Positions 2-52,981 of a stretch of 64,000 nt of DNA are shown piece after piece. The stretch spans positions 81,293-145,292 of the forward strand of contig JBDRPX010000003.1 of the NCBI GenBank assembly GCA_043826565.1. Direction: 5' to 3'. The notes below the pieces were generated by a model that worked only from the letters and a program-made list of their open reading frames with translations, was not told where the DNA came from and made no database searches. Source of the DNA: Candidatus Omnitrophota bacterium. Lineage in GTDB: Bacteria > Omnitrophota > Gorgyraeia > B26-G9. Every line of letters starts with the position of its first letter. The first letter of the stretch is position 1. The position numbers were made by a program, and so were the translations under genes.

Positions 2-3000
2 AAAAATAATGATTTACCGGGGATAATCTATGAGAACTTGCAGCAAGGCAGTCTTTTATTACAGAATTCTCCCAACAGTAATTTAATTCGGGCTTTGCGG
101 GTTGAGGTGAATAATTGTGAAGAGTTTTTTGATCCGAATCGCTACAAGATTTTTAATACCGCAATACACATATTTGAAGATAAACAGGAACAGGATGAAT
201 TTAGGGCTGAAAAGAATAAACAGCTGCTTTGCTTAAGACAATTAGAAGAAGGCAATTTACGTTTGTCTTTTGAAGACAATTCGGTGCATTTATTTTGGAA
301 AGGAGTTCAGCTTACGTCAAAGCAGGGTTTGCATACAGCGTTGATGTTAAATAATGAGTGGTTTGATTCTAGTAAATGTGAATGGAAAGTTGAGAGGATT
401 AACGATCAGTGTATATATATTAATATAGATTGGCGTCCTTTGCCGATAAAACAGACCTGGCAGGTGAATTTGATAAACGGCTATTCGTTTAGATGGCAGG
501 TTATTAATCATTTGAAAGATAACCGGGATGATCTGGTTAAGATTAAGACCTTGGGAGTGGTACTGCGTGCGGATTATCAAAAGTGGTTTGGCGGATATGA
601 GACTGGGGATTTCCCGAATAGTTTTGACCGCTGGCAGGAAATGATCAGTGATGTGCCGGATGGCGCGGTAGGAGTAAAACAATGTGCGGCATATCCGGCG
701 GTTATGCTTAAAAACGTTGCCGATAATCGCGCTGGGCTTATTGTTCAGAACGGCGATAATACTTCCGGATCCCGTCATTTGCAGGCTGTACAGGATGAGA
801 ATGATGGTAATTTCGCGCAGGAAATTTCAATTATCGAAGATGCTCAACAGGTAGATGACTATGTCCAGAAGCGAATGAATAATGAGATCATGCGTAATGG
901 TATCGGAATGGAACATTTGAAACTGCTTGCAGATAAGCAGAAGATCCGGGTCTTTTGGCAGGAGAAAGAACTAACTACGGATATCGGTTTGCATACGGCA
1001 ATACATTCTAGCGGATGCTGGTATGATTCCGGGAAAATGAAATGGCTGGTAAAAAAAATCACGGAAAAAAATCTGCAGATAACCGTGGATTTTAGTCCTT
1101 TTCCGGCGGTGCAGGTGTGGGATCTTTCGCTCGAGGGTAAAGATACTATAGATTGGGATGTTGAAATGGAGCTGAAAAATCCGGTGGAAATCGAAGAGCG
1201 TAAGGCCGGGATTATCCTGAATGGTGAATATACCCGCTGGTTTAATTCTTTCGAAGAGGGGATGTTTCCTGAAAAATTTGGTTTTTGGCACGATATCGTA
1301 CGTAATCGGGATGGGGAAACTTTCGGGACATATCCGCATAAAGATTTGCCGGGAGTTATGTTTTCCATCGATGCGAGCCATTTATCTCTTATCCAGAATG
1401 CTGATGAAAATATTAAAGGCAGAGTTTTGCAGGCGCAGATAGTCGAGGCAGAACAGACAAAGCAATATCCCGCCAAAAAGTTCTCTTGTTTTAAAGGGAA
1501 AATTAAGTTAGTAAAGGACGAAGGGGATATCGCGATATATAAACAAAACGCGCATCCGTTATTAGCCAAAGCAGAGGCTGTGTACATATATGGAGATTCT
1601 GCTGGTCTGCATGACCGGATTACCGGGGTTAAGGAATTTGATAAAAAGATTGAAATAATTGATGAGCTAAGAACTAAGGGGCAGGAGGTCCGGGTCGCGA
1701 TCGGCGTATCCCGCTACAATTTTTTTAAGCTTAACGAGATCGGACAGTTTGTGGCGGATAAGCTGGGGTATCCCCTAGATATGCGTTCGGTGCAGCTAAA
1801 TATATTTCCGTTAAAGAGACTGCGGAGAAATTTTATTGAATATTTAGATGAGTTAAAAAAATTACTTGGACAAATAGGGAATGTGGAATTGGTTCTTGCG
1901 GATAATGAACTGTTTGAATTGATCACTGCTGTTTGTTCTCAGGCGGATAGCGGGAATGAACGCCAATTACTGCGTTTGCTGGGGGTTATTAGTGAGCATG
2001 CGTTTATCGGCCCGCAGATTATTGTTATCGACCCCTTTCATCGCTGTAATGCCAACTGCGTGCATTGCTGGGTACATACTCCGGGAGTATTTCATCCGGA
2101 AGAGTTTTATGATATAAAACTAGATTTTGACCGGTTTAAATCAATTGCCGATGATCTGAGTGAGTTGCTGGTTGATCTGATCATCTTTCAAGGCGACGGA
2201 GAACCGTTATTGTATGATAAATTTTTTGATATGGTTCGATATGCCCGCAAAAAAGGCATCAAAGTGTCTTTTTTTACAAATGGGATTCTTCTGAATAAAG
2301 AGATTGCCAGGGAAGTTATTGATTTAGGGGTAGAGGAGATCTTTTGCAGTCTTCCGGCGGGAATTCCGGAGACGTTTGGAAAGATTAATACAAAACAAAA
2401 GCCGGAGATTTTAACGAAAATATTGGAAAATCTAAAATATCTTTCTGCTCTTAAGAAACAAGCCGGCAAAGAAAATCCCCGCTTGATCATGACTCATGTA
2501 ATTCATACGATGAATGCCCGAGAGCTTATGGCTATGGCTAAAAATGATATTGATATCGGGGCGGATATTGTTCGATTCTATCTTGTGCGCTTAGATGAAA
2601 ATATCGAATTCTTGAAATTAAAACCGGAAGATATAAAGGCAGTTCAGGATATTCTCCCTGAGATCAAAGAATTGTTTGAGAAAAATAATATTAAATTTCT
2701 TGATACAACCGAATTTCAATTGAATAATTTTGAGCAGGAAACCGGATCATGGTCTAAGAATGTATTTTTGGAAAATGGATGTACTTTGGGATGGAATTTC
2801 TGTTTAATCCCTGCTTCCGGAGAGGTTAGCTTTTGCTGTCACCTAAGAACGGTTGGTTTTTTGAATAAAAGTACATTTAAAGAGATATGGATTTCGCCGG
2901 AATATGACCGGTTTCGTTATCAGGCGAAGTTTTTAAATCAAAATAAAGATGCTAAGTTTCTTAACGGACATCCTTTGTTTGATGACTTCTGTGAGCATTG

Positions 3001-3079
3001 TGATACTCACCAGGTGATCAGGGATGTTTGGGATCAGTTTAAGCTTTATAATTTGGAAAGGTTTTTTCTTAAGAAATGA
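2..3079 (+). CDS. 5'-partial radical SAM/SPASM protein: two copies of a ~130-aa repeat domain N-terminal, rSAM core and C-terminal SPASM-like Cys cluster
   Basis: Frame is open to the window edge (ORF track starts at TTG 38, no upstream stop). CxxxCxxC motif 'HRCNANCVHC'. C-terminal 'CLIPASGEVSFCCH...DDFCEHCD' Cys cluster. Two internal repeats (~258-640 and ~940-1300) with conserved 'L(R)L.F....V.LFW...LT...GLHTA....W(Y/F)DS...W'. Confidence 0.7.
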   Translation, partial: KNNDLPGIIYENLQQGSLLLQNSPNSNLIRALRVEVNNCEEFFDPNRYKIFNTAIHIFEDKQEQDEFRAEKNKQLLCLRQLEEGNLRLSFEDNSVHLFWKGVQLTSKQGLHTALMLNNEWFDSSKCEWKVERINDQCIYINIDWRPLPIKQTWQVNLINGYSFRWQVINHLKDNRDDLVKIKTLGVVLRADYQKWFGGYETGDFPNSFDRWQEMISDVPDGAVGVKQCAAYPAVMLKNVADNRAGLIVQNGDNTSGSRHLQAVQDENDGNFAQEISIIEDAQQVDDYVQKRMNNEIMRNGIGMEHLKLLADKQKIRVFWQEKELTTDIGLHTAIHSSGCWYDSGKMKWLVKKITEKNLQITVDFSPFPAVQVWDLSLEGKDTIDWDVEMELKNPVEIEERKAGIILNGEYTRWFNSFEEGMFPEKFGFWHDIVRNRDGETFGTYPHKDLPGVMFSIDASHLSLIQNADENIKGRVLQAQIVEAEQTKQYPAKKFSCFKGKIKLVKDEGDIAIYKQNAHPLLAKAEAVYIYGDSAGLHDRITGVKEFDKKIEIIDELRTKGQEVRVAIGVSRYNFFKLNEIGQFVADKLGYPLDMRSVQLNIFPLKRLRRNFIEYLDELKKLLGQIGNVELVLADNELFELITAVCSQADSGNERQLLRLLGVISEHAFIGPQIIVIDPFHRCNANCVHCWVHTPGVFHPEEFYDIKLDFDRFKSIADDLSELLVDLIIFQGDGEPLLYDKFFDMVRYARKKGIKVSFFTNGILLNKEIAREVIDLGVEEIFCSLPAGIPETFGKINTKQKPEILTKILENLKYLSALKKQAGKENPRLIMTHVIHTMNARELMAMAKNDIDIGADIVRFYLVRLDENIEFLKLKPEDIKAVQDILPEIKELFEKNNIKFLDTTEFQLNNFEQETGSWSKNVFLENGCTLGWNFCLIPASGEVSFCCHLRTVGFLNKSTFKEIWISPEYDRFRYQAKFLNQNKDAKFLNGHPLFDDFCEHCDTHQVIRDVWDQFKLYNLERFFLKK
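258..640 (+). other. Copy 1 of unrecognised ~130-aa repeat domain (protein-level repeat)
   Basis: 'LRLSFEDNSVHLFWKGVQLTSKQGLHTALMLNNEWFDSSKCEWKVE...YQKWFGGYETGDFP' aligns with the three other copies at 940-1300, 5765-6130 and 7790-8160. Confidence 0.6.
940..1300 (+). other. Copy 2 of the repeat domain
   Basis: 'KIRVFWQEKELTTDIGLHTAIHSSGCWYDSGKMKWLVKK...YTRWFNSFEEGMFP'. Confidence 0.6.
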
Positions 3080-4062
3080 AGATTAAAATTGGCTGGCTAA
3101 AGAATAATACGAGATACAAACTTACTATAAAAGGAATCACACTGCTTTTTTTAAGCGGTGTTTTAGTCTCTTTTTTGATCGGTGAATTAATGGTGAGATT
3201 TTTTGTATCGTTTCCGATAAATAGAGAATATTTAAGGTTTGAATGTTTGGGGTATAAATTGATAAGTCAGAAGGCTAGAGATGCTCAGTTATTTTGGAAA
3301 CCGATTCCGGAATTTCGCGGCGAGTCATATCAGGAAAAAAAGGAAGACGGAGTTTTTCGGATCATTTGCATTGGAGATTCGGTAACGCAAAGTCATGGGA
3401 TAGACGGGTTCCCTCTGCCGAGGGAAAATACTTATGTTTTTTATTTGGAGAAGCTGTTAGAAAGTGGTTATGAAAATAAAAAATTTGAAGTGATTAATGC
3501 TGGGGTAGGAGGTTATAGCTCTTTACAGGGGGTGAGATATTTAGAAGGTAAATTGATCAAATATAACCCGGATTTAGTGATTAGCTGGTTTGGTATTAAT
3601 GACCGGGGACAGGCAGTATTTTATAATGATAAGCAACAGAAGCTGCCGCTTAAGGAAAGCTTAGAGAAAACAGGGGGAAGCAAATTATATAAATTTATAA
3701 AAAATTATTTTCTCATTATGCAGTATATGCCACGCGTATCTTACGGTGATTATTATGAAAATTGTGAGCAGATGCTGAAGTTATCTAAGAAAAATTATTT
3801 TGATATAGTATTTATTACTCCTTTTGAGGCTGATGTTCACGGCTCGTTAATATATTTAAATGATTATAAAGAAGCCTTGGAAAAACTAGCGGATAATTAT
3901 GATTCGACAGTATTAGATGTGCCCCCGTTTTTTAAATACAAGGCAAAGAATATGTTTATTGATTCTTGTCATCCGGACAAAGAAGGTAATACTGTTGTGG
4001 CCGAAACGATTTATACACTACTTAAAGAATCTGGTGTTTTTGATAAAATAAACTCCAATTGA
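3076..4062 (+). CDS. SGNH/GDSL-family hydrolase with N-terminal TM anchor
   Basis: Block I 'ICIGDSVTQS'. 'VINAGVGGYSS' (Gly block). C-terminal 'DSCHPDKEGNTVVAE' (DxxH catalytic block). ATGA overlap with upstream gene. Confidence 0.65.
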   Translation: MKIKIGWLKNNTRYKLTIKGITLLFLSGVLVSFLIGELMVRFFVSFPINREYLRFECLGYKLISQKARDAQLFWKPIPEFRGESYQEKKEDGVFRIICIGDSVTQSHGIDGFPLPRENTYVFYLEKLLESGYENKKFEVINAGVGGYSSLQGVRYLEGKLIKYNPDLVISWFGINDRGQAVFYNDKQQKLPLKESLEKTGGSKLYKFIKNYFLIMQYMPRVSYGDYYENCEQMLKLSKKNYFDIVFITPFEADVHGSLIYLNDYKEALEKLADNYDSTVLDVPPFFKYKAKNMFIDSCHPDKEGNTVVAETIYTLLKESGVFDKINSN

Positions 4063-4091: not shown

Positions 4092-7000
4092 ATGAGAATA
4101 GTATTAGTAAATATACCGTGGAAAAAAGGAACCCGCTGGGGGGTCCGGGCCGGGTCCCGGTGGCCGCACATAAAGGACCGGACGGAAGATAATTATCTGG
4201 CTTTTCCGTTTTATTTGGCTTACGCCGCGGCTTTATTAAAGAAAAATAAATTTGAGGTGTTTATTATTGACGCAATTGCCGAACGGTTATCTTACAAAGA
4301 TTTTTTCCAAAAAGTAATTTCTTTAAAACCTGATTTACTTGTTGCCGAAACTTCGACTGTTTCTCTTAAGCATGACCTGAATTTTCTTTTGCGCTTAAAA
4401 GGCCTTGCCGAGGTTGCGATATGCGGGCCGGATGTGCACATCGCGGATCCCAAGTTTTTGCAGGAAACAAGTCAGGTTGACTATGTGCTTTTTGGCGAGT
4501 ATGAAGCTACCTTGCTGGAACTGGCGCAGACTTTAAGGGGGAACTATTGCAAAACGCCCATCTGCGGCGTTTCTTCCTCATTCGCTTGTGCGACGTCCGA
4601 CGAAAAGGACGCCTCCTCGCTCATTCGTCGAGGCCTTGCATCTGAACATTTTTCAATAGTCCCCGGAGACAGAAAATTGTTGGATAAAATTGACGGTCTG
4701 ATTTTTCGGGATAAAGGGAGGATTATTAAAAATAAGCCGCGTCCTTTAATTTCTGATCTTGATTGGCTTCCTTGGCCGATGCGCAAACAGCTTCCCATTA
4801 AACGTTATAATGATGCTCCGGGAGATATCCCGATTCCTTGTGCTTCGATGTGGGCCAGCCGGGGATGTCCGTTTAGGTGTTCTTTTTGCTTATGGCCGCA
4901 AGTAATGTATAACGGGAACAGCTATCGTACCAGAGATGTGAAGTCTGTTGTTGATGAGATGGAATATCTGATTAAGAAACTTGGCTTTAAATCAATTTAT
5001 TTTGATGATGATACGTGGAATATCGGAGAAGATCGGATTTACGCTTTTTGCGAAGAACTTAATAAAAGGGAATTGAATATCCCCTGGGCAATTATGGCCC
5101 GGGCCGAACTGATGGATGAAGCATTACTTGAAGCAATGCGTAAAGCAGGTTTATTTGCCGTTAAATACGGGATAGAGTCTTCTTCTCAGGAGATTTTGGA
5201 TAAGCTTGGCAAAGGTCTTGATCTGAAAAAAGCCGAAGAGGTAATTAAATACACAAAGTATTTAGGGATTAGAACGCATCTTACTTTTACATTCGGTTTG
5301 CCCGGAGAAACTCAACAATCAATACAAGATACAATCAATTATGCTCTTAAACTTAATCCTACATCAGTACAGTTTTCTATAGCCACTCCCTTTCCCGGAA
5401 CAAGGTTTTATGAAGAGATGGAAAAAAAAGGATACCTTTTAACCAAAGATCTGGAAAAATTTGACGGTAACCACAGCAGTGTGATCCGCACGGAGCATTT
5501 ATCAGGTAAACAGCTGCAAAAAGCTAAAAAAACAGCCTATGCCGAGTGGGATAAGCATTATCAATTGAAAAATAAAAAACTTTTTTTCAAGAATAAACCT
5601 TTAAAAGTAAAATTGATGAGTTCTTTAGTTGAACAGGGCGTGGTGCTTACGGCAATAAAAATTCTCAGATTTATAATCAGAAGAGTCTTTTTTTTTCCGT
5701 TACGGGTCAAACAGCTTTTTACCCGAAAGCTGTGGATTATTGAGGAGATTGTTGGGACAAGAGACTTAAGGCTTAAATTTGGAGAAGGCCGGGTTAAAGT
5801 TTTTTGGAAGGATAAAGAGATCAGTAAAGATGTCGGGTTGACGACTTCTTTACATTATGGGGATTGCTGGTTTGATTCAACCCAGGCGAATTGGAAGCTG
5901 GAAAAACAATCAGGGGATAAGATAAAAGTAAAATTAAAGTGGGACGAAGTCCCGGTCCGCCAGGAATGGGATATCGAGATTATTGAAGACCGGCAAATTA
6001 AGTGGGTAAGTACTCTGCAGGTGGAAAAAAGTGTGCAGTTACTTGAGTATAAGGCCGGGATAATGGTGTCGGATAGCTATACCAAGTGGAGAGATGATTT
6101 AGGAATTGGTAAATTCCCAAAGATTTCCGGGTGGGAGGAAATTGAATTATATAACTCCAATAGTGCGGTTTTAAGAGTAATCGCGGATGAAGGCAAAGGC
6201 GGAAAAACGGATCTTCCAGAACTGGAAATGCGCTCAGCTTGTGATTTAGAAAATAATACTTATCCGCAGATACAAAATACCGATTGTAAGATAAATGCCA
6301 GAATATTGCAGATGCGGAAATTGAAGATCGCCCAATTTACCCCGGGAGATTATAAGTATTTTGATTTGGAAATTGTAATAGAGAATAAGCAATTGGTTCC
6401 TCAGACCATAGATAAGTATAAGAAAAGAGTGCCGCTTCAATTTATAAAGGAACAGATATCGGCGGGCGGATTCTTCCCGGTTTTAATGAAAATATTAAAG
6501 CACTTACATCCCCGGCGATTAAGTGATTATTATTTGGATATTATCGGGGTTCTTGACGGCAGTTACGCGTATAAAGGCCCGTCTTTTGTTCAGATAGACC
6601 TTACCAATGATTGTAATAATGATTGCATCGGATGTTGGTGTAATTCGCCGCTTTTAGGTGATAAAAAAATCGACGATACGGTTAAACGCCAGACATTACC
6701 ATTTGAAACTGTAAAAAAGACTATTGATGAGCTAGCGGGAATGGGAACGAAGGAGATTTATTTTGCCGGAGGCGGAGAGCCGTTTATGCATCCAGAGATA
6801 TTGCCTATTCTCGAACATGTGAAAAAACGGAGATTGGGTTGTTATATAAATACAAATTTTACCCTGGTTAATGAGGATGTTGTAAAACGGTTAGCCGAAT
6901 TGAAAGTGGATAATCTGATTGTAAGTGTCTGGGCGGGTACTCCGGAAACTTATTGCTTGACCCATCCGAATAAATCCGAAGGCATGTTTTATCAGATTAA

Positions 7001-8423
7001 GGGCATGCTCAGGCTGCTGAGCACGCTTAAACAGGGCGTTCCGAATATTAATATTTATAATGTGATTTCCAATTTAAATTATCATGAGCTTGAGGAAATG
7101 GTTGAGTTTGCCGTAGATGCTCATGCTGATTCTTTGGAATTTACCGTAATTGATACTATCCCTAATGCTACAGACTCTCTTCTTTTAAGCGACCAACAGA
7201 GAAAAATAGTTTTAGAAAGTTGTCAAAGAATTCAGAAGAGATTGGAAGAGGATTTGAAAGGAAAAATAAAGGTTTTGCAATTTGAACAGTTTGTCCGCCG
7301 GATTGATACCCGGGATGCCCAAGAAGCAAAATACGATAAAAATATCCTGGAACAGATGCCGTGCTATATCGGATGGCTATTTGCCCGGATATTAGCTGAC
7401 GGAAATGTCAATTTTTGTCTTAAAAGCCATCGTATCCCGGTGGGGAATATTTACGCGCAGGATTTTTCTGATATATGGAACAGTCAGCGGCAGCAGGAAT
7501 TCCGAAAACGATCTTTATGCGCAGATAAGAATGACGTGTTTTTTTCTTTTATCGGAAATGATCCAAATGTAAAGGTGGGGTGCTTTAAAAGCTGTGATGA
7601 TTTAGCGCGTAATGTGAGGATGCATAAGAAGCTTCAGTCTCTTACGTTTTGGGAATTAAAATTTTTAAGCCGTGTTTTATTTTTCAAGAAGCTGCAGAAA
7701 GCTTTCCGCAATAAGAAATTAGGCCAGGTAATTCGCTCTCAGATAAAAAAACGTCAATTAACCGCGGGCAAACACTTATCCCGCGGAGATTTAAGGCTGG
7801 AGAGCCATAGCGATGGGATCAAACTATATTGGGCCGATAGACAATTAACCGAGAGTGTGGGGCTCAATAGTTCCGTATGTATATTTGGATTATGGTATGA
7901 CTCATCGAAGGCAGAATGGGAAATCAAGAAACACACCGATACTGAGATTATTATAAAAAACGTCTGGCATAAAATTCCTATCGCGCAAAACTGGGAATTG
8001 AAGGTAAAGCAAGGGAATGTGGTTAGCTGGAATATTAATTTGTCTGTTGAGTCTAAAATTGAGATAGAAGAGACTAAAACAAGTATAATGCTTTCATCGG
8101 ATTACCGTAAGTGGCAGACGCAGAAGGAACAGGGGAAGTTTCCTTTGCTTTCCTTTTGGAATGAAGCGGATATTAATGATTTATCAGTTAAGAATGTCGG
8201 GGTAGCCAGAAGTAAGGGGAAAGGGGGCTTTCGCCCGGGGATAGATCTTAATTTTTCAGATATGTCCGGGGATACGCGTCCTCAGATACAAAATGCGGAT
8301 AAAAGTATTAATGCCCGGATTATTTCCGCCCGGTGTGTTGAGAATAATGGTGGAAAAGTATTTTTGCCTGGGGAATATAAAATTTTTTCCGGGGAAATAG
8401 TGATAAGGTCTGACGATGTCTAA
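4092..8423 (+). CDS. 1443-aa multidomain fusion: B12-binding domain + rSAM, repeat domain, second rSAM with SPASM-like cluster, repeat domain
   Basis: N-terminal 'MRIVLVNIPW...GSRWP...FEVFIIDA' (B12/Rossmann-like). First CxxxCxxC 'CPFRCSFC'. Second CxxxCxxC 'NDCNNDCIGCW' with 'FAGGGEPF'. Downstream Cys cluster 'MPCYIGW...NFCLKSH'. Repeat copies at ~5765-6130 and ~7790-8160. Confidence 0.75.
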   Translation: MRIVLVNIPWKKGTRWGVRAGSRWPHIKDRTEDNYLAFPFYLAYAAALLKKNKFEVFIIDAIAERLSYKDFFQKVISLKPDLLVAETSTVSLKHDLNFLLRLKGLAEVAICGPDVHIADPKFLQETSQVDYVLFGEYEATLLELAQTLRGNYCKTPICGVSSSFACATSDEKDASSLIRRGLASEHFSIVPGDRKLLDKIDGLIFRDKGRIIKNKPRPLISDLDWLPWPMRKQLPIKRYNDAPGDIPIPCASMWASRGCPFRCSFCLWPQVMYNGNSYRTRDVKSVVDEMEYLIKKLGFKSIYFDDDTWNIGEDRIYAFCEELNKRELNIPWAIMARAELMDEALLEAMRKAGLFAVKYGIESSSQEILDKLGKGLDLKKAEEVIKYTKYLGIRTHLTFTFGLPGETQQSIQDTINYALKLNPTSVQFSIATPFPGTRFYEEMEKKGYLLTKDLEKFDGNHSSVIRTEHLSGKQLQKAKKTAYAEWDKHYQLKNKKLFFKNKPLKVKLMSSLVEQGVVLTAIKILRFIIRRVFFFPLRVKQLFTRKLWIIEEIVGTRDLRLKFGEGRVKVFWKDKEISKDVGLTTSLHYGDCWFDSTQANWKLEKQSGDKIKVKLKWDEVPVRQEWDIEIIEDRQIKWVSTLQVEKSVQLLEYKAGIMVSDSYTKWRDDLGIGKFPKISGWEEIELYNSNSAVLRVIADEGKGGKTDLPELEMRSACDLENNTYPQIQNTDCKINARILQMRKLKIAQFTPGDYKYFDLEIVIENKQLVPQTIDKYKKRVPLQFIKEQISAGGFFPVLMKILKHLHPRRLSDYYLDIIGVLDGSYAYKGPSFVQIDLTNDCNNDCIGCWCNSPLLGDKKIDDTVKRQTLPFETVKKTIDELAGMGTKEIYFAGGGEPFMHPEILPILEHVKKRRLGCYINTNFTLVNEDVVKRLAELKVDNLIVSVWAGTPETYCLTHPNKSEGMFYQIKGMLRLLSTLKQGVPNINIYNVISNLNYHELEEMVEFAVDAHADSLEFTVIDTIPNATDSLLLSDQQRKIVLESCQRIQKRLEEDLKGKIKVLQFEQFVRRIDTRDAQEAKYDKNILEQMPCYIGWLFARILADGNVNFCLKSHRIPVGNIYAQDFSDIWNSQRQQEFRKRSLCADKNDVFFSFIGNDPNVKVGCFKSCDDLARNVRMHKKLQSLTFWELKFLSRVLFFKKLQKAFRNKKLGQVIRSQIKKRQLTAGKHLSRGDLRLESHSDGIKLYWADRQLTESVGLNSSVCIFGLWYDSSKAEWEIKKHTDTEIIIKNVWHKIPIAQNWELKVKQGNVVSWNINLSVESKIEIEETKTSIMLSSDYRKWQTQKEQGKFPLLSFWNEADINDLSVKNVGVARSKGKGGFRPGIDLNFSDMSGDTRPQIQNADKSINARIISARCVENNGGKVFLPGEYKIFSGEIVIRSDDV
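4560..4660 (+). repeat. GC-rich ~100-bp in-frame insert within the B12-domain region, with internal inverted repeat (cgacgaa/ttcgtcg) and direct repeat (ctcattcg)
   Basis: Local GC is far above surroundings. Encodes 'CGVSSSFACATSDEKDASSLIRRGLASEHFS' between 'KTPI' and 'IVPGDRK...GLIFRDKGRII'. The equivalent loop in the other seven B12-rSAM paralogs here is short. Confidence 0.4.
5765..6130 (+). other. Copy 3 of the repeat domain
   Basis: 'LRLKFGEGRVKVFWKDKEISKDVGLTTSLHYGDCWFDSTQANWKLEK...YTKWRDDLGIGKFP'. Confidence 0.6.
7790..8160 (+). other. Copy 4 of the repeat domain
   Basis: 'LRLESHSDGIKLYWADRQLTESVGLNSSVCIFGLWYDSSKAEWEIKK...YRKWQTQKEQGKFP'. Confidence 0.6.
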
Positions 8424-10068
8424 AATAATAATTATTAGCAGTCCTCCCTGGGGAATTGTAATGCCGCCGTTAGGTATGGCTTATCTTGCCACTTATCTTA
8501 AATCTAAAGGGATTGTTCCGGAAATATATGATTTAAATTTGCAGTTGTATGAACAAGCGGATCAACAGCAAGAGCATTTTTGGGATTTGGATACGATCAA
8601 TAAATTTTTGCCTGTGGATATTGCTCATAATTTGTTTGCTGCTTTTGAAGATACTTTAGGGGATGTTGTAAAAAAGCTTGTTAATTATGATATTGTTGGT
8701 TTTTCCGCGAATAATCTTATTAGTACAACTTTTGCCGGTATTATGGGTACTCAAATAAAAAATATTTCGCCGAAGACTAAAATCATTTTAGGCGGTCCGG
8801 GATGTTTTCATAGTTGGGATCGGAAAGCTGTACCAAAAGATGCGGTTGATTTCTTTATTATCGGGGAAGGGGAAGAGGCCTTATATCGGCTGATTATGGC
8901 CATAGATGAAGGTGACGAACAGCGAGAAATTCCCGGGGTGATTTGTTGCGCGGCCGGAGATAGAAAAAGATTTTATCCGCCGGAGCCGGTAAAAAATCTG
9001 GATGTCATTCCGTTTCCGACATTCGAAGAATTTGATGTAAGTAAGTACAGTTATGGAAAAAAATACCGGCCGCTGCCGATGCTTACCAGCCGGGGCTGTA
9101 TTAATCAATGCGCGTATTGTATAGACTGTTATATGTCCGCACCTTTTCGGGCCCGGAGCCCGGAACAGGTAGTTTCTCAAATAAGCTATTATAAAAAACA
9201 TTACGGGATAACTCATGTTGAGTTTAATGATTTATTATGTAATGGTAATTTAATCCGGCTGGAAAAACTTTGTGATCAATTGATCGAGGCGGAACTTAAT
9301 ATAAATTGGATTAGTTATGCGGCAATAAGAAGAAAAATGAATTCTCAGTTGCTTGAGAAAATGAGAAAAGCCGGATGTACATCTTTATGTTTTGGGGTTG
9401 AAAGCGGTTCGGATAGTGTATTAGCGCGAATGAATAAGCATTATATAAGAGCCGAGGCTAGTGCCTTGCTTAAAAAAACCCATGAGGCAGGAATTACCGC
9501 ACGCCTTAATTTAATTGTCGGTTTCCCCGGGGAAACCGAAGAGAATTTTCAGCAGACACTTGATTTTATTAAGGATAATATGGCATCTATCAGTCAGGTA
9601 ACAAATGTCTCGTCTTTTGTGCTTATGCCCGGATCGGATATCGGGATTTATCCTTACCGGTTTGGGGTGAAGTTTTTAGATCCGCTTGATCCCGGAATTT
9701 GGACAGATGAATTCGGGCTTACTCAGCAGGAGCGCAATAACCGGGTGGCTCGGGCCTGCCGGTTACTGGAAGAATTAAATATTCCTAACCTGATTATCAA
9801 TTATCAAAGCAAGACTCAAGACGCAAGACTCAAGACGCAAGACTCAAGACTCAAGACGCAAGACTCAAGACCCAAGACTCAAGACGCAAGACCCAAGACG
9901 CAAGACGCAAAACTCAAGACTCAAGTTGTTGTCAGAACATTTAATCGTGATAGATTAGTAAGTAAGATAATAAAGCTTATTTTTCTGTTTGTTTTTAGCT
10001 TAATTATTGATATTTATCTATTTTTATTAAAAAAAATCAGAGGTTCGATCATATTTCCGGGAAACTGA
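8416..10068 (+). CDS. B12-binding-domain radical SAM protein with C-terminal heptad low-complexity tail and TM helix
   Basis: N-terminal 'IIISSPPWGIVMPPLGMAYLATYLKSKG' (B12 domain). 'LTSRGCINQCAYCIDC' CxxxCxxC. C-terminal 'KTQDARLKTQDSRLKTQDSRPKTQDARPKTQDAKLKTQ' then hydrophobic 'IIKLIFLFVFSLIIDIYLFLL'. Confidence 0.8.
   Translation: MSKIIIISSPPWGIVMPPLGMAYLATYLKSKGIVPEIYDLNLQLYEQADQQQEHFWDLDTINKFLPVDIAHNLFAAFEDTLGDVVKKLVNYDIVGFSANNLISTTFAGIMGTQIKNISPKTKIILGGPGCFHSWDRKAVPKDAVDFFIIGEGEEALYRLIMAIDEGDEQREIPGVICCAAGDRKRFYPPEPVKNLDVIPFPTFEEFDVSKYSYGKKYRPLPMLTSRGCINQCAYCIDCYMSAPFRARSPEQVVSQISYYKKHYGITHVEFNDLLCNGNLIRLEKLCDQLIEAELNINWISYAAIRRKMNSQLLEKMRKAGCTSLCFGVESGSDSVLARMNKHYIRAEASALLKKTHEAGITARLNLIVGFPGETEENFQQTLDFIKDNMASISQVTNVSSFVLMPGSDIGIYPYRFGVKFLDPLDPGIWTDEFGLTQQERNNRVARACRLLEELNIPNLIINYQSKTQDARLKTQDSRLKTQDSRPKTQDARPKTQDAKLKTQVVVRTFNRDRLVSKIIKLIFLFVFSLIIDIYLFLLKKIRGSIIFPGN
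9810..9925 (+). repeat. Tandem 7-bp repeat (caagacN) x ~16 inside the coding sequence
   Basis: Read directly: caagact caagacg caagact caagacg caagact caagact caagacg ... Unit length 7 is not a multiple of 3, giving a 7-aa protein periodicity. Confidence 0.9.
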
Positions 10069-10166
10069 ACAACAGAAGACAGAGGTCAGAATATGAAGAA
10101 TGAAATTTTTTATTATCTGTCATCTGTCATCTGTTTTCTGTCTTCAAACTTCTGTGGGGTACAGCA
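10069..10166 (+). repeat. Intergenic element: inverted repeat gaagacag...ctgtcttc flanking a 7-bp tandem repeat (tctgtNN x4); potential long RNA hairpin
   Basis: 'cagaagacagaggtcag...tctgtcatctgtcatctgttttctgtcttc'; gaagacag is the exact reverse complement of ctgtcttc. Confidence 0.6.
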
Positions 10167-10170
10167 ATGA
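10093..10170 (+). CDS. Candidate small ORF, 25 aa: MKNEIFYYLSSVICFLSSNFCGVQQ
   Basis: ATG preceded by GAGGT 6 nt upstream. Stop TGA overlaps the ATG of the next gene (ATGA coupling). 3 Cys, hydrophobic. Lies within the heptamer/hairpin element, so it may be non-coding. Confidence 0.3.
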   Translation: MKNEIFYYLSSVICFLSSNFCGVQQ

Positions 10171-11321
10171 ATATTCTAATGGTTCATCCGCATGATGTAT
10201 TCTCCCAAGAAGAGCCGTGGACGGTTCGGATCAAGAATATTGCCGCGGAATTTAAAAAAAAACATCATCAGGTAAAAATTGTTTACTTCCCTCTGAGATT
10301 TCCAGCACATCAACAGGAGTTTTCGGTAGAAGGAGTTGAGTATATTCCCTTGAGCCGCCGTTTAGGCATACGTTTGTATATTCGTAATATTAAGAAAATG
10401 ATCGAACTCTGCGGCTGGGCTGATATTGTGCACTTTCAGAAGTGTTTTTATTATGCGGCATTGCCGGCATTAATCGGTGCGTTTATAAAACATAAGCCGG
10501 TGCATTATGATTGGGATGATTGGGAAATTAAAATTTTCCATTACAGTTGCTCTCAGCCATGGCTTGTCGGTACATTTCTGGCGGCTTTGGAAAGGTTTAT
10601 GCCGGCAATTTGCGATAGCGTTTCTGTTTCCAGTTATCGTTTGCGGGAAGAATGTATCCGTTATGGAGTGGCTCCGGAGAGAATAGCCATGGCTCCGGTA
10701 GGAGCTGATTTAAAATTATTTCATCCGGAAGTTTCCGGGGTGCGCGTACGTGAACGGTTTAATATTGAAGGGCCATTGGTGATTTATCTCGGACAGCTTC
10801 ATGGAGGCCAGTATGTTGAGCAATTTATTAAAGCTTCCAAGATAGTTCTAAATAAATCATGGCCGGTTAAATTCATGATCGTCGGAGACGGATATAGACT
10901 AAAGGAGTTAAAGGATATGGCTGACAAACTGGACTTAACTGATAAATTAATATTTACCGGTCCGGTTCCGCATCGGGAGGCTCCGTTATATTTGGCTGCT
11001 GCGGATATCGCGGTAGCCTGTTTTGAGGATAATGATATTACCCGGTGTAAAAGTCCTCTGAAAATCGCCGAATATTTGGCCAGTGGAAAACCTATTGTGG
11101 CCAGTAATGTAGGAGAAGTTAAACGAATGCTTGGTGGCGCCGGGGTTGTAACTTTACCTGGCGATGTGCAAAATCTTGCCGAGGGAATTACAAAGCTTCT
11201 CGATGATGAGCTGTTACGGAAACGTTTGAGAGTAAAAGCCAGAGCAAGGGCGGAAGAAATTTATAATTGGGCGATTACTTCAGAAAATTTGCTTAATATT
11301 TATAGTAAGCATTTTATTTAA
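10167..11321 (+). CDS. GT4-family glycosyltransferase
   Basis: C-terminal 'KIAEYLASGKPIVASNVGEV' (GT4 E-x7-E region), 384 aa GT-B-like length. Confidence 0.65.
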   Translation: MNILMVHPHDVFSQEEPWTVRIKNIAAEFKKKHHQVKIVYFPLRFPAHQQEFSVEGVEYIPLSRRLGIRLYIRNIKKMIELCGWADIVHFQKCFYYAALPALIGAFIKHKPVHYDWDDWEIKIFHYSCSQPWLVGTFLAALERFMPAICDSVSVSSYRLREECIRYGVAPERIAMAPVGADLKLFHPEVSGVRVRERFNIEGPLVIYLGQLHGGQYVEQFIKASKIVLNKSWPVKFMIVGDGYRLKELKDMADKLDLTDKLIFTGPVPHREAPLYLAAADIAVACFEDNDITRCKSPLKIAEYLASGKPIVASNVGEVKRMLGGAGVVTLPGDVQNLAEGITKLLDDELLRKRLRVKARARAEEIYNWAITSENLLNIYSKHFI

Positions 11322-11346
11322 AAGATAAAGTATAAAATTAGCGATT

Positions 11347-12138
11347 ATGGAAAAAATTAAATTTGAGAATAAAAAATTTTTAAAAGTGATGTTTTTTTTA
11401 GGCAGTATTGCTTTATTTGTAATTTTTTGTTATTTCAAAGCAGAAGGGAGAAGCTCCTTTTTGTGTTCCTCAGCAATGGCGCATATGCAGGTGGATGGAT
11501 TGGATGCCAGCACTATTCTTAAAAAAGGAATAAATGATTTTTTTTCTGATGGGATTGCCTATAATCCAGATGTCGATAGACGAATAGAAGAAGATTATTT
11601 TGCTCAGAATAGGATTTATAACGGCGACTTTTCTGACGAATTAGCACACTGGAGCACCATAAATTCTAGTAATAGTTATCCAAAAAATAGAAATCTTTTT
11701 ATTGTTTCTCAGGAAGAATGTGTATCCGAGCCATATAGTATTAAAATATGTGCAAATGAACATCCCTGCTCATTGTTTTATGTTAAAAATGCCCGGGTTA
11801 ATATTATAAGTCCCCCGGGGAATTACAGAGCGGTACCGGAAGCCTGGCTAGGCGTAATTCCAGGAGAAATGATTGATTTTAGTTGTTACTATAAAGGGAT
11901 CGGGCCGACAATTTATATTAATATAACAACGCGAGCTGGATTTATGAGGAATTTAAAAAAAATTATAATTAAAGAAATTGCTAAGGATTGGCAGGAGTGC
12001 CGAATTAGTGTTCAAATCCCTAAAGACGGCAGGGCTATTTCATTTGAAATCCAAGTTGGTTCTATTTTGCCAAATTCTGTAATGTATTTAGATGATATTT
12101 TAATTTCGAGCCGGAGGCTTATTGATGATAAAAGATAA
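11347..12138 (+). CDS. Membrane-anchored protein with CBM4/9-like (carbohydrate-binding, beta-sandwich) domain; paralog of 15913..16668
   Basis: N-terminal TM 'FLGSIALFVIFCYF'. 'YNGDFSDELAHW' resembles the CBM_4_9 'NG(D/G)FE...W' start. 'SEPYSIKICA' and 'AWLGVIPGEMI' are conserved with the paralog ('SAPYSLKIES', 'NWLGVLPGAKI'). Confidence 0.45.
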   Translation: MEKIKFENKKFLKVMFFLGSIALFVIFCYFKAEGRSSFLCSSAMAHMQVDGLDASTILKKGINDFFSDGIAYNPDVDRRIEEDYFAQNRIYNGDFSDELAHWSTINSSNSYPKNRNLFIVSQEECVSEPYSIKICANEHPCSLFYVKNARVNIISPPGNYRAVPEAWLGVIPGEMIDFSCYYKGIGPTIYINITTRAGFMRNLKKIIIKEIAKDWQECRISVQIPKDGRAISFEIQVGSILPNSVMYLDDILISSRRLIDDKR

Positions 12139-13225
12139 ACGAATGTATGGGATTTGTTTGTTTTTACTAATTATTTTTCACTTGATAAATATTTCCTTGT
12201 GGTATAACAAAAAAATATGGCCTGCCGGCAAGGATTACTCTTATCACTTACAGAGAACATGTACATTTATGAAGGAAGTTGAAAGGCATAAAGACTGGAG
12301 ACAATTTGTTTTTATTGATAAAACGGATTATCCGCCATTTTATTATTGGACCGGGGCTGTTTTGGGGCTATCTTTTAGAACATATAATGTTTTGTTTTTT
12401 AATTCAGCATTCTATTTAGTTGTGCTTTTGGTTTCGGTTTATGGGATAGGAAGGGAGTTGATGAATATCGAGACAGGATGCTTTTCTGCGATAATTTGCT
12501 CTTTTTCCCCGTTTATTTATAATTCTTCTATACAATTTAATTTAGAACTTGCAACGGCGGCATTAGTCAGCCTGATCGTGTGCATGATTGTGTTAAGCCG
12601 AGGATTTAGTCGTGGTTTTTATACTTTTCTGATGGGAGTAGCCTTAGTGATGGGAGGATATACGCGGCAGATGGTTTTTATTTTTGTTGCGGGGCCTGTT
12701 TTGATGGGCATAATTAAGCTTTGTTGTAATAAAAATCTGGATATGTATTTAAAATTAAAGAGATTAGCTTGTCTGGGCATAGTGCTGGGGATATCTTTTG
12801 GCTGTTTGCTGCCGTATTATCATGTTGTTCGATGGACACATCCGATGATTCAAAAAATAAATTTGACTGGATGGGCTCAGGGGGGTAATGTATTTTCTTT
12901 TGAGCATTTGATTTATTACATCAGGGTCATTCCACAGCAAATAGGGTGGGTGTATACTATTGTTTTTGGGCTAAGCCTAGTGGTTTTTCTAAAGGCAGAT
13001 GTAAGTAAAAGACAAATTATTTTTTCATGGAGTATCCCATCGTTATTGATTTTTTCGCTTTTTTTGTTAAAATTCCCCGAATTAACAATAGCAAATATTC
13101 CAGCAATGGCTTTAATTATAGCTTATGCGGTGTGTCTGATAAAACCTTTGTTTTTAAAAAATGGAGTAGCAGTTTTAATTTTAATATTAAGTATGTGTAA
13201 TTATTTTAGGAGTTTCCCATGGTAA
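12122..13225 (+). CDS. Polytopic membrane protein, GT-C-like glycosyltransferase (short form)
   Basis: 367 aa, many hydrophobic segments. 'DYPPFYYW' loop motif is shared with 16670..18355 ('DYPPFFYF'). Overlaps and is coupled to the upstream CBM-like gene. Confidence 0.45.
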   Translation: MMIKDKRMYGICLFLLIIFHLINISLWYNKKIWPAGKDYSYHLQRTCTFMKEVERHKDWRQFVFIDKTDYPPFYYWTGAVLGLSFRTYNVLFFNSAFYLVVLLVSVYGIGRELMNIETGCFSAIICSFSPFIYNSSIQFNLELATAALVSLIVCMIVLSRGFSRGFYTFLMGVALVMGGYTRQMVFIFVAGPVLMGIIKLCCNKNLDMYLKLKRLACLGIVLGISFGCLLPYYHVVRWTHPMIQKINLTGWAQGGNVFSFEHLIYYIRVIPQQIGWVYTIVFGLSLVVFLKADVSKRQIIFSWSIPSLLIFSLFLLKFPELTIANIPAMALIIAYAVCLIKPLFLKNGVAVLILILSMCNYFRSFPW

Positions 13226-14166
13226 AAAAAATATCAATAATAGTACCTGTTTTTAATGAGAGGGATAACTTGGCGGAGTTGAATAAAAAACTAGTCAGTG
13301 TTTTATCGAGATTGGATATGGAGAATGAAATAATTTATGTGGATGATGGTAGTAATGACGGTAGTGCGGATATCTTGAATGAGATACCTGATAAGTATAA
13401 TAATGTTAGAGTTATAACTTTAGCGAAAAATTTCGGGCAGACCCAGGCGATTTCTGCAGGGGTGGACAATTCAGACGGCGATGTTATCATTACTATTGAT
13501 GCTGATCTTCAAAATGATCCGGAAGATATCCCGGCTTTATTAGCTAAACTTAAAGAGGGCTATGATATGGTCAGCGGCTGGAGAGTGAATCGTCAAGATA
13601 ATTTATTGTTTAAAAAGATACCCTCGGCTATTGCTAATCGCATAAGTTCTTTATTGACGAATGTTAATGTCCATGATTTGGGATGTACATTAAAAGTTTA
13701 TAAACGCACAGTATTAGAAGATATTGATTATTATGGTGAAATCCATAGATTTTTGCCGGTTTTTGCGGCTATGCACGGAGCGACGATTGCGGAAATTCCC
13801 GTAAAACATCATAAGAGAAAAAATGGGAAGTCAAAGTACGGGTTATCAAGAATTTATAAAGTAATTCTTGATATGTTTACGATCATGTTTATGTGGAAAT
13901 TTTTAACCAGGCCGGTATATCTTTTCGGAGGCCTGGGAATGATTTCTTTGGGGTTTGCTTCTTTTACGGCTTTGTTTGTTGTAATTAGAAAAATGTTTTT
14001 CGGCGGGGTTTGGGTAAGTCCGCTTTTATTTCTTTTTGTTGTATTTTCTACAATGGGAATTCAGTTTATTCTTATGGGGGTTCTCGGAGAACTTATTATC
14101 CGGCTCTATTATGGTGCGCGTGACCAAAAACGATATAAGATTAAAAGAGTAGAGAGTAGCAAGTAG
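13219..14166 (+). CDS. GT2 polyprenyl-phosphate sugar synthase (ArnC/GtrB/DPM1-like) with C-terminal TM helices
   Basis: 'ISIIVPVFNERDNL'. 'YVDDGSNDGS'. 'TIDADLQNDPEDIP'. 'VSGWR'. Two C-terminal hydrophobic helices. Confidence 0.8.
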   Translation: MVKKISIIVPVFNERDNLAELNKKLVSVLSRLDMENEIIYVDDGSNDGSADILNEIPDKYNNVRVITLAKNFGQTQAISAGVDNSDGDVIITIDADLQNDPEDIPALLAKLKEGYDMVSGWRVNRQDNLLFKKIPSAIANRISSLLTNVNVHDLGCTLKVYKRTVLEDIDYYGEIHRFLPVFAAMHGATIAEIPVKHHKRKNGKSKYGLSRIYKVILDMFTIMFMWKFLTRPVYLFGGLGMISLGFASFTALFVVIRKMFFGGVWVSPLLFLFVVFSTMGIQFILMGVLGELIIRLYYGARDQKRYKIKRVESSK

Positions 14167-14232: not shown

Positions 14233-15909
14233 ATGAATATATTGGGAATTTGTGATAGTCAGGATGCCGGAGCTGTGTTTATCTGTGACGGCGGTAAAGA
14301 TATTACTGCGGTTAATGAGGAACGTTTGTCGCGGATAAAATTATGCGGAGGATTTCCGGAAAAATCAATCAAGGAGATTTTGCGGATTAAAAAAATTGAT
14401 CCGCAGAAGATTGATCAGGTGGTTTTAGCTTCTAAGATGACGCCATCATTTTTATTAAGAAGTTTTCGTAATGTGCACGCTCGGTTGCGGGGAAATAATA
14501 AGCAATTCAGTTTTTTACTTTCCCTTTACATTCTCTACCAGATGATTGCCCGCAAAACTATAATTTTAGCTAAAATTGAGGAATATTTGTCACGGATTTA
14601 TTTAAAAGCGCGCTTAAAAAAACTGGGAATAAAAAGTAAAGTCAGTGTAATCGATCACCATACCGCGCATGCCTATGCAGCATATAGTACATCAGGATAT
14701 GAACAGGCACTGATTATTACTATCGATGGATTGGGAGATGGCCTTTCTTTTACTGTTAGTATCGGCAAACAAGGCCGGGTTACCAGGATTTTTGAGCAGA
14801 ACGCATTAAATGACATAACCTTGTACTATTCCAGATTAACGGACTTTCTGGGGTTTAAACCTATTCAGGATGAAGGAAAAGTAATGGGATTGGCCGGATA
14901 TTCGAGTAATTATTTCTATCTTCTTCAAGCTCAAAAACTCCTTAAAGTAAAGTCCGGACGATTTCGTTCGAAAAACATATTTTCTCAAGATAAAAAAATA
15001 TATAAGCAGTTAAAAGGTAAAAGCCCTCAGGATATCGCGGCTTCATTTCAAGTTCATGTTGAGCAAGTGCTGAGTGAAATTGTTGATTATTGGGTGGATA
15101 AAACAAAAATAAGCGATGTTGCCTTAGGCGGCGGATTTTTTGCTAATATTAAAGTCAACCAAAAGATCGCGGAATTAAAAAATGTGAACAGTGTTTACGT
15201 CTATCCTCATATGGGAGATGGAGGAATAGCTTTAGGAGCAATATTCGCGGTTATGCAAGTGAAGCCGTTTCGTTTAAAAAATGTTTTCTGGGGACCGTCA
15301 TATTCTCAGCAGGACATAGAGGATGTTCTTAAAAAAAATGGTGTTCGGTATGAAAGGGTAAACAATATAGAAAATCGCATAGCTGAGCTTATCAGCCAAG
15401 GAAAGATCGTGGCGCGTTTTTGCGGAGCAATGGAATATGGACCTCGCGCATTAGGAAATCGTTCTGTTTTAGCTCCGGCTACAGATAAGGATGTGGTGAT
15501 GAAGCTTAATCAAAAACTTGGGCGGGATATGTTTATGCCTTTTGCTCCGGTTGTTTTAGCAGATAAGATTCACGAGTGTTGTCTGAATGTAGAAAAAGCT
15601 ATTTATTCTGCCAATTTTATGAATGTGAGTTTTTCTTGCACGGAATACTTTAAAAAATTATGTCCGGCCGTGGTTCACACTGACGGAACAACTCGTCCCC
15701 AATGTGTTTTTGAGGAAAATAATTTTAAGTTGTTTAAAATTTTAAATAAATATCAGAAGATAACCAAGATTCCGGCAATGATTAATACCAGCTTTAATAC
15801 TCATGAGGAGCCAATTGTGTGTTCTCCGGAAGATGCTTTGAGATCATTTAAGATGGCGAAGCTTGAATATTTAGCGATGGAGAACTTTTTAATAAAAGGA
15901 GACTATTAA
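14233..15909 (+). CDS. Carbamoyltransferase (NodU/CmcH family)
   Basis: N-terminal 'MNILGICDSQDAGAVFICDGGKDITAVNEERLSRIK' matches the family's 'ILG...HD..A.L..DG.I.AA.EER..R.K' start. 558 aa. 'HH.AHA' motif 'DHHTAHAYAAY'. Confidence 0.7.
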   Translation: MNILGICDSQDAGAVFICDGGKDITAVNEERLSRIKLCGGFPEKSIKEILRIKKIDPQKIDQVVLASKMTPSFLLRSFRNVHARLRGNNKQFSFLLSLYILYQMIARKTIILAKIEEYLSRIYLKARLKKLGIKSKVSVIDHHTAHAYAAYSTSGYEQALIITIDGLGDGLSFTVSIGKQGRVTRIFEQNALNDITLYYSRLTDFLGFKPIQDEGKVMGLAGYSSNYFYLLQAQKLLKVKSGRFRSKNIFSQDKKIYKQLKGKSPQDIAASFQVHVEQVLSEIVDYWVDKTKISDVALGGGFFANIKVNQKIAELKNVNSVYVYPHMGDGGIALGAIFAVMQVKPFRLKNVFWGPSYSQQDIEDVLKKNGVRYERVNNIENRIAELISQGKIVARFCGAMEYGPRALGNRSVLAPATDKDVVMKLNQKLGRDMFMPFAPVVLADKIHECCLNVEKAIYSANFMNVSFSCTEYFKKLCPAVVHTDGTTRPQCVFEENNFKLFKILNKYQKITKIPAMINTSFNTHEEPIVCSPEDALRSFKMAKLEYLAMENFLIKGDY

Positions 15910-15912
15910 TAT

Positions 15913-16668: not shown

Positions 16669-16669
16669 T

Positions 16670-19407: not shown

Positions 19408-19432
19408 CTTTGTCTGCCGTAGGCAGACAAAG
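19408..19432 (+). terminator. Perfect 11-bp stem / 3-nt loop hairpin directly after the stop codon (no U-tract)
   Basis: ctttgtctgcc-gta-ggcagacaaag. Followed by 'gagtagagagtagc', which also occurs at 14147. Confidence 0.4.
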
Positions 19433-19472
19433 AGCAGCGAGTAGAGAGTAGCTAGAAAAGAGAAAAGCAGAG

Positions 19473-51534: not shown

Positions 51535-51583
51535 TCGAGGAATATCTTTGTGATTGAAAATATGACGAAAACGAGGAGTTTTC

Positions 51584-52951: not shown

Positions 52952-52981
52952 TTAAAAAATTATAATTACGGAGGGTGATGC

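Follow-up and report, generated by a model that had tools for sequence, protein, structure and literature searches.

A conserved fusion of two radical SAM enzymes shares a repeated domain with an exporter ATPase in a probable polysaccharide-assembly locus of Omnitrophota

Introduction

Polymer- and peptide-modifying enzymes can carry an added recognition module, for example the lectin-like C-terminal domain of the GT-C arabinosyltransferase EmbC, or the recognition element (RRE) of enzymes that mature ribosomally synthesized and post-translationally modified peptides (RiPPs). We know of no such module that is common to an exporter and its tailoring enzymes, and the radical SAM (rSAM) chemistry on carbohydrates that is known to us acts on small molecules or nucleotide sugars. 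Among ABC exporters, Wzt recognizes its polysaccharide via a C-terminal carbohydrate-binding domain (PMC9445017). Here we describe a protein of the uncultured Candidatus Omnitrophota bacterium in which two rSAM enzymes are fused, each of them followed by a copy of a repeat domain (R; the two copies within the fusion are R1 and R2). Its open reading frame (ORF) occupies positions 4092..8423 of the + strand of a 64,000-nucleotide stretch of DNA, which we call the window. The fusion belongs to a probable polysaccharide-assembly locus, whose radical enzymes probably modify a cell-surface glycan ahead of its export.

Results

The ORF runs from an ATG to a stop codon with no internal stops and encodes 1443 amino acids (protein P0004, labelled by NCBI as 'MAG: radical SAM protein [Candidatus Omnitrophota bacterium]'). 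Its start codon is right, because the N-terminus MRIVLVNIPWKKG agrees with the family consensus. All features of the fusion and of its neighbors given below are on the + strand. The N-terminal half consists of a B12-binding-type Rossmann domain (aa 39-144, 4206..4523; Pfam PF02310 at 36.9 bits, above its cut-off of 32.1) and a first rSAM core (aa 256-417, 4857..5342; PF04055), and is followed by R1 (aa 547-778, 5730..6425; 248 bits against the family profile). The C-terminal half has a second rSAM core with an auxiliary-cluster domain (aa 833-1170, 6588..7601), comprising a second PF04055 stretch from about aa 838 and the SPASM Pfam match PF13186 at aa 1091-1144 (41.9 bits against a cut-off of 21.5), and ends in R2 (aa 1218-1443, 7743..8420), the copy that we used for structure modeling. 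The cluster motifs of the two cores, CPFRCSFC (C259/263/266) and CNNDCIGC (C841/845/848(/850)), are invariant among 20 aligned homologs. The initial annotation, made from the letters of the sequence, had described a single ORF with two rSAM catalytic domains, and the uninterrupted 1443 codons, the Pfam matches and both motifs bear this out.

Long ORFs of this kind can arise when an assembly error or a frameshift unites two genes, and one related metagenome-assembled genome (MAG) could be read in that way: in L001, both R-bearing genes are broken, into ORFs of 330 + 856 aa and 95 + 1254 aa. The 1254-aa ORF of L001 still holds both rSAM halves and both R domains, however, and an independent assembly (L002, the Logan assembly of run SRR26275510) is identical to the window, with 100% identity across 9857 bp. 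Full-length homologs of 1381-1415 aa, at 55-64% identity, make up more than 20 protein clusters from several studies. Relatives are encoded by 18 GTDB species representatives, at least 13 of which have the uninterrupted architecture B12rSAM-R-rSAM/SPASM-R in a single ORF. We therefore give an artefact practically no weight: the 1443-aa protein is a true and conserved two-enzyme fusion, and not the product of the frameshift or sequencing error that the initial annotation had named as a possible objection.

Two divergent lineages (L014 and L016, 42-43% identity) have the same parts as two adjacent overlapping genes, B12rSAM-R and then rSAM/SPASM. Judged from gene order, adjacent split halves are the usual signature of two enzymes of one pathway, and because these lineages keep the parts as neighbors we interpret the fusion as an evolutionary joining of neighboring pathway genes. 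L001 is the groundwater MAG GCA_016213925.1. Its homolog of the R-bearing gene upstream of the fusion (L001 positions 10001-13585; 330 + 856 aa) is split within an R copy, and its fusion homolog (15573-19609; 95 + 1254 aa) has lost about 50 residues of the B12 domain; these breaks are either assembly errors or decay in GCA_016213925.1.

The repeat unit is a single all-beta domain of about 220 residues (215-230). Its length had been put at about 130 residues, which is only the N-terminal 60% of the domain, and four copies had been counted over two genes where there are five, two in the fusion and three in the upstream gene. R1 and R2 are 34% identical over 211 aa (E = 9e-44), far more than chance would give, and every R copy reaches 156-273 bits with the family profile. 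When the window was scanned in all six frames with the profile, R appeared only in the fusion ORF and the partial ORF at 2..3079. Searches of Pfam with four R copies at E up to 10, of NCBIfam with the two whole R-bearing proteins, and of PDB sequences with an R profile all failed to find a match to R. AlphaFold2 modeling of R2 (aa 1220-1443), with an alignment of 30 diverse R copies (A2) as input, produced one all-beta domain with a pLDDT of 94.8 and a pTM of 0.91. This model superposes over its whole length on members of the galactose-mutarotase-like supersandwich fold, such as a GH36 galactosaminidase (9awt, score 18.8), an aldose 1-epimerase (3nre, 17.3) and a GH38 mannosidase (2wyh, 17.0). 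The 60 fold matches listed are mostly glycoside hydrolases, phosphorylases, lyases, mutarotases or OpgG/OpgD, and Foldseek assigns R to the same fold. In a 904-aa multi-domain model of the fusion, R1 has a pLDDT of 83-91 across most of its length with a dip at aa 700-709; this larger model (pTM 0.52) confirms the individual domains, and its inter-domain geometry is unreliable. On the strength of these models, R is a divergent and unnamed sequence family with a galactose-mutarotase-like beta-supersandwich fold. The original impression that the repeat falls in no known family is thus correct as regards Pfam and NCBIfam, but not as regards its fold.

Conservation within R was profiled over 426 instances, non-redundant at 70% identity. 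No position is Asp/Glu or His in 70% or more of them, and the conserved positions are nine aromatics, one Gln, one Asn and one Arg, plus Thr, Ser, Gly and Pro. In R2, conserved positions fall at aa 1247, 1253, 1268, 1271, 1276, 1292, 1299, 1301, 1313, 1338, 1341, 1350, 1401 and 1409 of the fusion. The lack of a conserved Asp, Glu or His position makes R look non-catalytic, and its occurrence in tandem arrays of strongly diverged copies argues for binding or scaffolding; going by its sequence profile, R is most likely non-catalytic. Mutarotase catalysis was considered and rejected, since R matches neither Aldose_epim nor any other Pfam family at E up to 10 and the 426 instances have no conserved His or Glu.

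HMMER, run exhaustively over 1.84 billion representative sequences, found 662 cluster representatives with R at E ≤ 1e-3, of which 357 are at E ≤ 1e-30. A word-indexed search with a five-copy R alignment gave just 3 proteins, without the one encoded in the window itself, a result that reflects its candidate collection and not the rarity of R. We made a census of domain architectures in 269 proteins, comprising the 150 best R matches plus homologs from other searches, with Pfam checks on samples. About 80 of the 150 best R matches have an ABC nucleotide-binding domain followed by 2-7 copies of R. Many others in the census are rSAM/SPASM or B12-rSAM enzymes with 1-4 copies before, between or after the catalytic domains, and nine are GT-C (PMT_2/GT39) glycosyltransferases with 2-4 copies at the C-terminus. 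In three proteins an exporter ATPase is fused directly to radical enzymes: P0036 (ABC-R2-B12rSAM-R-rSAM/SPASM), P0129 (ABC-R5-rSAM/SPASM) and P0254 (ABC-R2-rSAM/SPASM). One of the glycosyltransferases, P0201 (GT-C-R4), lies in a separate glycan cluster together with GT2 and GT4 glycosyltransferases, a sugar epimerase, a carbamoyltransferase, an asparagine synthase, a B12-rSAM and a Wzx-type flippase. A stand-alone R protein, which it had been suggested to look for, was not established: the shortest matches come from tiny contigs, such as that of P0233 (267 aa), which measures 1265 bp. All R proteins that have a source name come from Candidatus Omnitrophota MAGs, and two genome records with the fusion carry the labels 'PVC group' and 'uncultured Planctomycetia'.

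The exporter ATPase of this particular locus lies outside the window, six genes upstream, in L002, which extends 5.9 kb past the window start on the upstream side. There the upstream R-bearing gene is complete. It starts 473 nt before the window and encodes 1183 aa with the architecture R-R-R-linker-rSAM/SPASM, and so does not open with a B12-rSAM domain as the initial annotation had thought possible. Of the first R copy, only the final 72 residues lie inside the window (2..217; the rest is cut off by the window start, and the remnant was found by profile scan). They are followed by the second copy (221..877, 199.7 bits), the third copy (881..1555, 235.5 bits) and the rSAM/SPASM catalytic part (2033..2938; PF04055 and PF13186). 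Two R copies had been seen at the N-terminus of the partial ORF; both are complete, and the remnant of the first had been overlooked. Before this gene, L002 has five small rSAM(/SPASM) genes preceded by a gene for an ABC ATPase of 1337 aa, identical at its C-terminus to protein P0137. P0137 consists of a nucleotide-binding domain (aa 1-240) and five R copies (array at aa 244-1337), and its nucleotide-binding domain scores best against TagH, an exporter of teichoic acid (187 and 168 bits), and Wzt/RfbE, an exporter of galactan (154 bits). The Wzt-R gene of related loci follows an ABC-2 (Wzm-like) permease. The conserved order is Wzm, Wzt with R, small rSAMs, R3-rSAM/SPASM, GDSL (0-3 genes), fusion, B12-rSAM, and it holds wherever the contig is long enough (L001, L004, L006-L009, L015 and L016), with Wzm seen where the flank extends that far (L001 and L004).

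Ten R copies are therefore present at the locus, five on Wzt, three on the upstream gene and two on the fusion. They are 11-33% identical among themselves, whereas orthologous copies in different species are about 60% identical, which indicates that each R position is old and separately maintained.

The rest of the window places the fusion among genes for glycan synthesis, as annotated from their sequences. Nearly all of its genes are on the + strand and closely packed. They include GT1/GT4 glycosyltransferases at 10167 and 25549, GT2 glycosyltransferases at 13219 and 28143, six GT-C/PMT_2 genes plus YfhO, a NodU-type carbamoyltransferase, two DegT aminotransferases, an asparagine synthase, WbqC, two GDSL genes and a methyltransferase. 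Interleaved with them are 22 rSAM domains in 21 genes; eight of the rSAMs have a B12-binding N-domain and six are of the SPASM type.

A carbohydrate-type fold, the absence of catalytic residues, the position on Wzt, and attachment to three classes of glycan-handling machinery lead us to view R as a glycan-recognition module. In the interpretation that we favor, and hold to be somewhat better than an even bet, R is a non-catalytic module through which the exporter and the radical tailoring enzymes are directed to one and the same lipid-linked polysaccharide; glycan binding by R is a prediction. The initial annotation had proposed a substrate- or carrier-binding module, and substrate binding is still the best reading, with the exporter ATPases and GT-C transferases pointing to a glycan as the likely ligand instead of a peptide or a carrier protein.

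R might instead be a protein-protein docking module, which does not bind glycan and in which heterotypic R-R contacts would put the radical enzymes on the cytoplasmic tail of the Wzt ATPase in an enzyme-exporter complex. The same domain on the exporter and the enzymes of one operon is compatible with this scheme, and the natural ABC-R-rSAM fusions show selection for co-location. The strong divergence of the copies by position is what would be expected of specific pairwise interfaces, and the fold also has non-sugar roles, in YidC P1 and viral capsid proteins. Against docking, the conserved residues of R are rich in Trp, Tyr, Gln, Asn and Arg, and R is also found on GT-C glycosyltransferases, where it would be beyond the reach of a cytoplasmic ATPase if it is extracytoplasmic, as GT-C C-terminal domains are in solved examples. 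Crude hydropathy counting gave 7-12 transmembrane segments in the GT-C-R proteins. We consider a pure docking role rather unlikely, though it is the most serious competitor of the glycan-recognition hypothesis.

What the two catalytic halves act on bears on the same question. The B12-type half has the architecture of a B12-binding (class B-type) rSAM enzyme, a Rossmann domain followed by a CxxxCxxC core. Its best NCBIfam families are HpnJ (259.5 bits, cut-off 577.6), BchE (160 bits, cut-off 481) and AprD4 (107.7 bits, cut-off 500), so that no equivalog cut-off is reached, and its nearest solved structure is AprD4 (6fd2, E = 6e-26). AprD4 has a B12 domain yet is not known to require cobalamin, and for this reason cobalamin use by the B12-type half should not be assumed. 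In the second half, four cysteines downstream of the core are invariant (1091, 1109, 1164 and 1168), and a further one, C1143, is present in 65% of homologs; the seven-cysteine motif for two auxiliary [4Fe-4S] clusters is absent. This pattern fits a single, Twitch-like auxiliary cluster and not a full seven-cysteine SPASM domain, and the 'SPASM-like' cysteines of the initial annotation are thus backed by the PF13186 match but suffice for only one cluster. NCBIfam matches of the second half are to SPASM/Twitch families of the tungsten-cofactor maturase, NirJ2 and AhbD types, all below cut-off. Its only PDB sequence match is to the auxiliary-cluster region of BtrN (E = 4e-5), and its Foldseek neighbors in the 904-aa model are SkfB, BlsE, DesII, SuiB, PqqE and viperin, a set that does not separate sugar-acting from RiPP-type rSAMs. 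The substrates of AprD4, HpnJ, BtrN, BlsE and DesII are sugars or cyclitols, those of AprD4 and BtrN being aminoglycoside sugars or cyclitols. By analogy, the likeness of the fusion to these enzymes agrees with a carbohydrate substrate, and the matches are too distant to name a reaction.

The RiPP-type neighbors raise the alternative that these enzymes are RiPP maturases and that R is a peptide-recognition element analogous to the RRE. rSAM/SPASM enzymes are typical RiPP maturases, the fold neighbors of the second half include SkfB, SuiB and PqqE, and there are weak matches to several NCBIfam RiPP rSAM families. Yet a precursor gene would not fit: the fusion is flanked by gaps of only 29 and 98 nt, and other genes nearby abut or overlap. 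Moreover, the exporter is of the Wzm/Wzt type, as opposed to a peptide exporter with a peptidase; R, as an all-beta supersandwich of 220 aa, differs from the small winged helix of the RRE; and R is also borne by GT-C glycosyltransferases. A role in RiPP maturation accordingly seems to us very improbable.

The resemblance to HpnJ suggests a different substrate, a lipid or glycolipid (a hopanoid-like polyol or the head group of a membrane-spanning lipid), in which case the ABC-2 transporter would export lipid. Among NCBIfam families, HpnJ scores highest with the N-terminal half (259 bits) and one named 'lipid biosynthesis B12-binding/radical SAM protein' comes next, the small rSAMs of the locus weakly match the tetraether synthase Tes, and Omnitrophota are named in surveys of rSAM lipid-modifying enzymes. 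These family scores are far under their cut-offs (259 versus 577 for HpnJ), however, and the best matches of the transporter are the TagH and galactan-Wzt families. Glycosyltransferases and sugar-modifying enzymes dominate the locus, and the fold of R is known chiefly from carbohydrate enzymes. We also count it against a lipid substrate that the target of HpnJ itself is a sugar head group. Overall we think it improbable that a lipid is the substrate, if less so than a peptide.

If R recognizes glycan, the locus could work as follows. A lipid-linked glycan would be assembled at the cytoplasmic face of the membrane, and R modules would keep the radical enzymes on the polymer. The AprD4/HpnJ-like B12-type half and the BtrN/BlsE/DesII-like half would each catalyze a radical reaction that modifies sugar residues independently of oxygen, for which dehydration or deoxygenation, oxidation to a keto-sugar, C-methylation and epimerization are candidates. 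The R array of Wzt would then take up the finished chain for export via Wzm/Wzt.

Several observations weigh against this interpretation. RiPP maturases (SkfB, SuiB and PqqE) rank as high as sugar enzymes among the fold neighbors of the second half, and the BtrN sequence match is weak and limited to the auxiliary-cluster region. Ten R copies that are only 11-33% identical are odd if all of them bind one repeating polymer. The conserved aromatics of R may be core residues instead of surface residues. Lastly, we identified no initiating phosphoglycosyltransferase in the window.

A bolder version of the glycan-recognition hypothesis is a radical 'glycan editing line' of Omnitrophota, in which dozens of oxygen-independent rSAMs would act on polymerized lipid-linked polysaccharide and not on nucleotide sugars, R would be the common lectin module of supersandwich fold, specific to the phylum, that holds them there, and the five-copy array of Wzt would read modifications or chain length to license export. 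We regard this extended scheme as speculative and on balance doubtful.

The fusion has further features outside its named domains. After each catalytic domain comes a helix that is basic or amphipathic. The first, at aa 511-537 (5622..5702), is hydrophobic and basic, with a Kyte-Doolittle maximum of 1.74 and four Lys/Arg, and the next linker peaks at 1.02. Their composition suggests that these helices are probably peripheral membrane anchors. A transmembrane pass at aa 511-537 was rejected, because R1 would then end up outside the cell although the Fe-S domain that follows must be cytoplasmic, and the next linker is too weakly hydrophobic for the chain to cross back.

Within the B12-domain region there is also an in-frame insertion of 43 aa with three cysteines (aa 150-192, 4539..4667), which is present in none of 19 aligned homologs. 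The 129-nt insertion is flanked by imperfect inverted repeats, GGGGAACTATTG...CAATAGTCCCC, whose 27-nt arms are 74% complementary, and folding it as DNA gives z = -2.3. In these respects it resembles a small palindromic element placed in frame. There is no second copy in the window, and a search of metagenome contigs found no exact match to the arms.

In the upstream protein, the third R copy and the rSAM core are separated by a linker of about 150 aa (window positions ~1560-2030, aa 520-676 of the partial ORF), which matches no Pfam family. Its aa 526-591 have weak NCBIfam matches to the middle of the rSAM barrel (ScmE and HxsC profiles), so that the linker could be part of a degenerate rSAM domain. 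A GDSL/SGNH acylhydrolase identified by Pfam (3076..4062) separates the two R-bearing genes; related loci have 0-3 such genes at this position. The fusion's stop codon is overlapped by the gene for a separate 550-aa B12-binding rSAM (8416..10068), which is always the fusion's downstream neighbor. Further along the window, five rSAM paralogs with a PF23545 Zn_ribbon_HMPTM N-terminus occupy 50197-60743 with other genes in between. Five ORFs of 183-618 aa within the glycan/rSAM cluster have no Pfam match at the thresholds applied (11347-12138, 15913-16668, 30220-30771, 38795-39643 and 45727-47583), and for 11347-12138 and 15913-16668 there is no NCBIfam match either. Elsewhere in Omnitrophota there are proteins of about 1450-1950 aa with one B12-rSAM and four rSAM/SPASM modules, or four rSAM/SPASM modules alone (P0025-P0032, L015 10624-16413 and L019 228-4586). 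Multi-rSAM megaproteins are thus common in this phylum.

Discussion

The folds and enzyme superfamilies discussed here were already known, and the gene had been deposited, under the bare name 'radical SAM protein'. What appears to be new is the R sequence family, its sharing among an exporter, rSAM enzymes and GT-C transferases, and the direct fusion of an exporter ATPase to rSAM enzymes; full-text literature searches found no published description of the R domain, of the R-bearing fusions or of exporter-rSAM fusions. If the editing-line scheme is true, R would be, as far as our knowledge and these searches go, the first carbohydrate-binding-type module on rSAM enzymes, and the first recognition module common to tailoring enzymes, an exporter and periplasmic GT-C transferases. 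As a substrate-targeting module found both on rSAMs and on the exporter encoded with them, R would indicate polymer-level radical tailoring of surface glycans in strict anaerobes, possibly by deoxygenation, C-methylation, oxidation or epimerization, and the density of 22 rSAM domains in 64 kb suggests that the tailoring repertoire is unusually large. A family model of R would improve on the names under which these proteins are now public ('radical SAM protein', 'hypothetical protein' and partial family names), and its domain boundaries and conserved residues provide handles on how glycan modification could be coupled to ABC-transporter export.

Among known systems, R shares its fold with the non-catalytic galactose-mutarotase-like domains of GH36, GH38, GH97 and GH2 enzymes and with aldose 1-epimerases, but its sequence identity to them is only 5-14%, it has no conserved His/Glu matching the mutarotase catalytic residues, and it is joined to rSAM enzymes, ABC ATPases and GT-C transferases instead of hydrolases. 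The N-terminal half of the fusion has the same B12-like domain and rSAM core as the apramycin diol-dehydratase AprD4 and the hopanoid cyclitol-ether rSAM HpnJ, and differs from both by its fusion with R modules and with another rSAM enzyme. Similarly, the second half resembles BtrN, BlsE and DesII in having an rSAM core and four invariant downstream cysteines, enough for one auxiliary cluster, although the matches are weak (E = 4e-5; 17-21% identity) and Pfam labels the region SPASM.

Recognition modules on other modifying enzymes provide looser parallels. The RRE (PqqD-like) is a winged helix-turn-helix of about 90 aa that binds peptides, in contrast to the 220-aa all-beta R, and the gaps of less than 100 nt that flank the fusion leave no room for a precursor gene. 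The GT-C transferases with C-terminal R parallel the layout of EmbC, with unrelated fold and sequence.

The closest counterpart is the C-terminal domain of Wzt (Wzt_C) from E. coli O9a and Aquifex aeolicus. Wzt_C is a smaller jelly-roll sandwich, and R has no match to it (in searches at E up to 10 for four copies of R, and at E up to 0.001 for five ABC-R proteins). R also occurs in arrays of 2-7 copies where Wzt_C is a single domain, and it is found on tailoring enzymes as well as on the exporter. What the two systems have in common is the arrangement, R being located where characterized Wzt proteins have the domain that recognizes their glycan (PMC9445017): in P0137 and about 80 other proteins, the R array directly follows a Wzt/TagH-type nucleotide-binding domain, with a Wzm-type permease adjoining.

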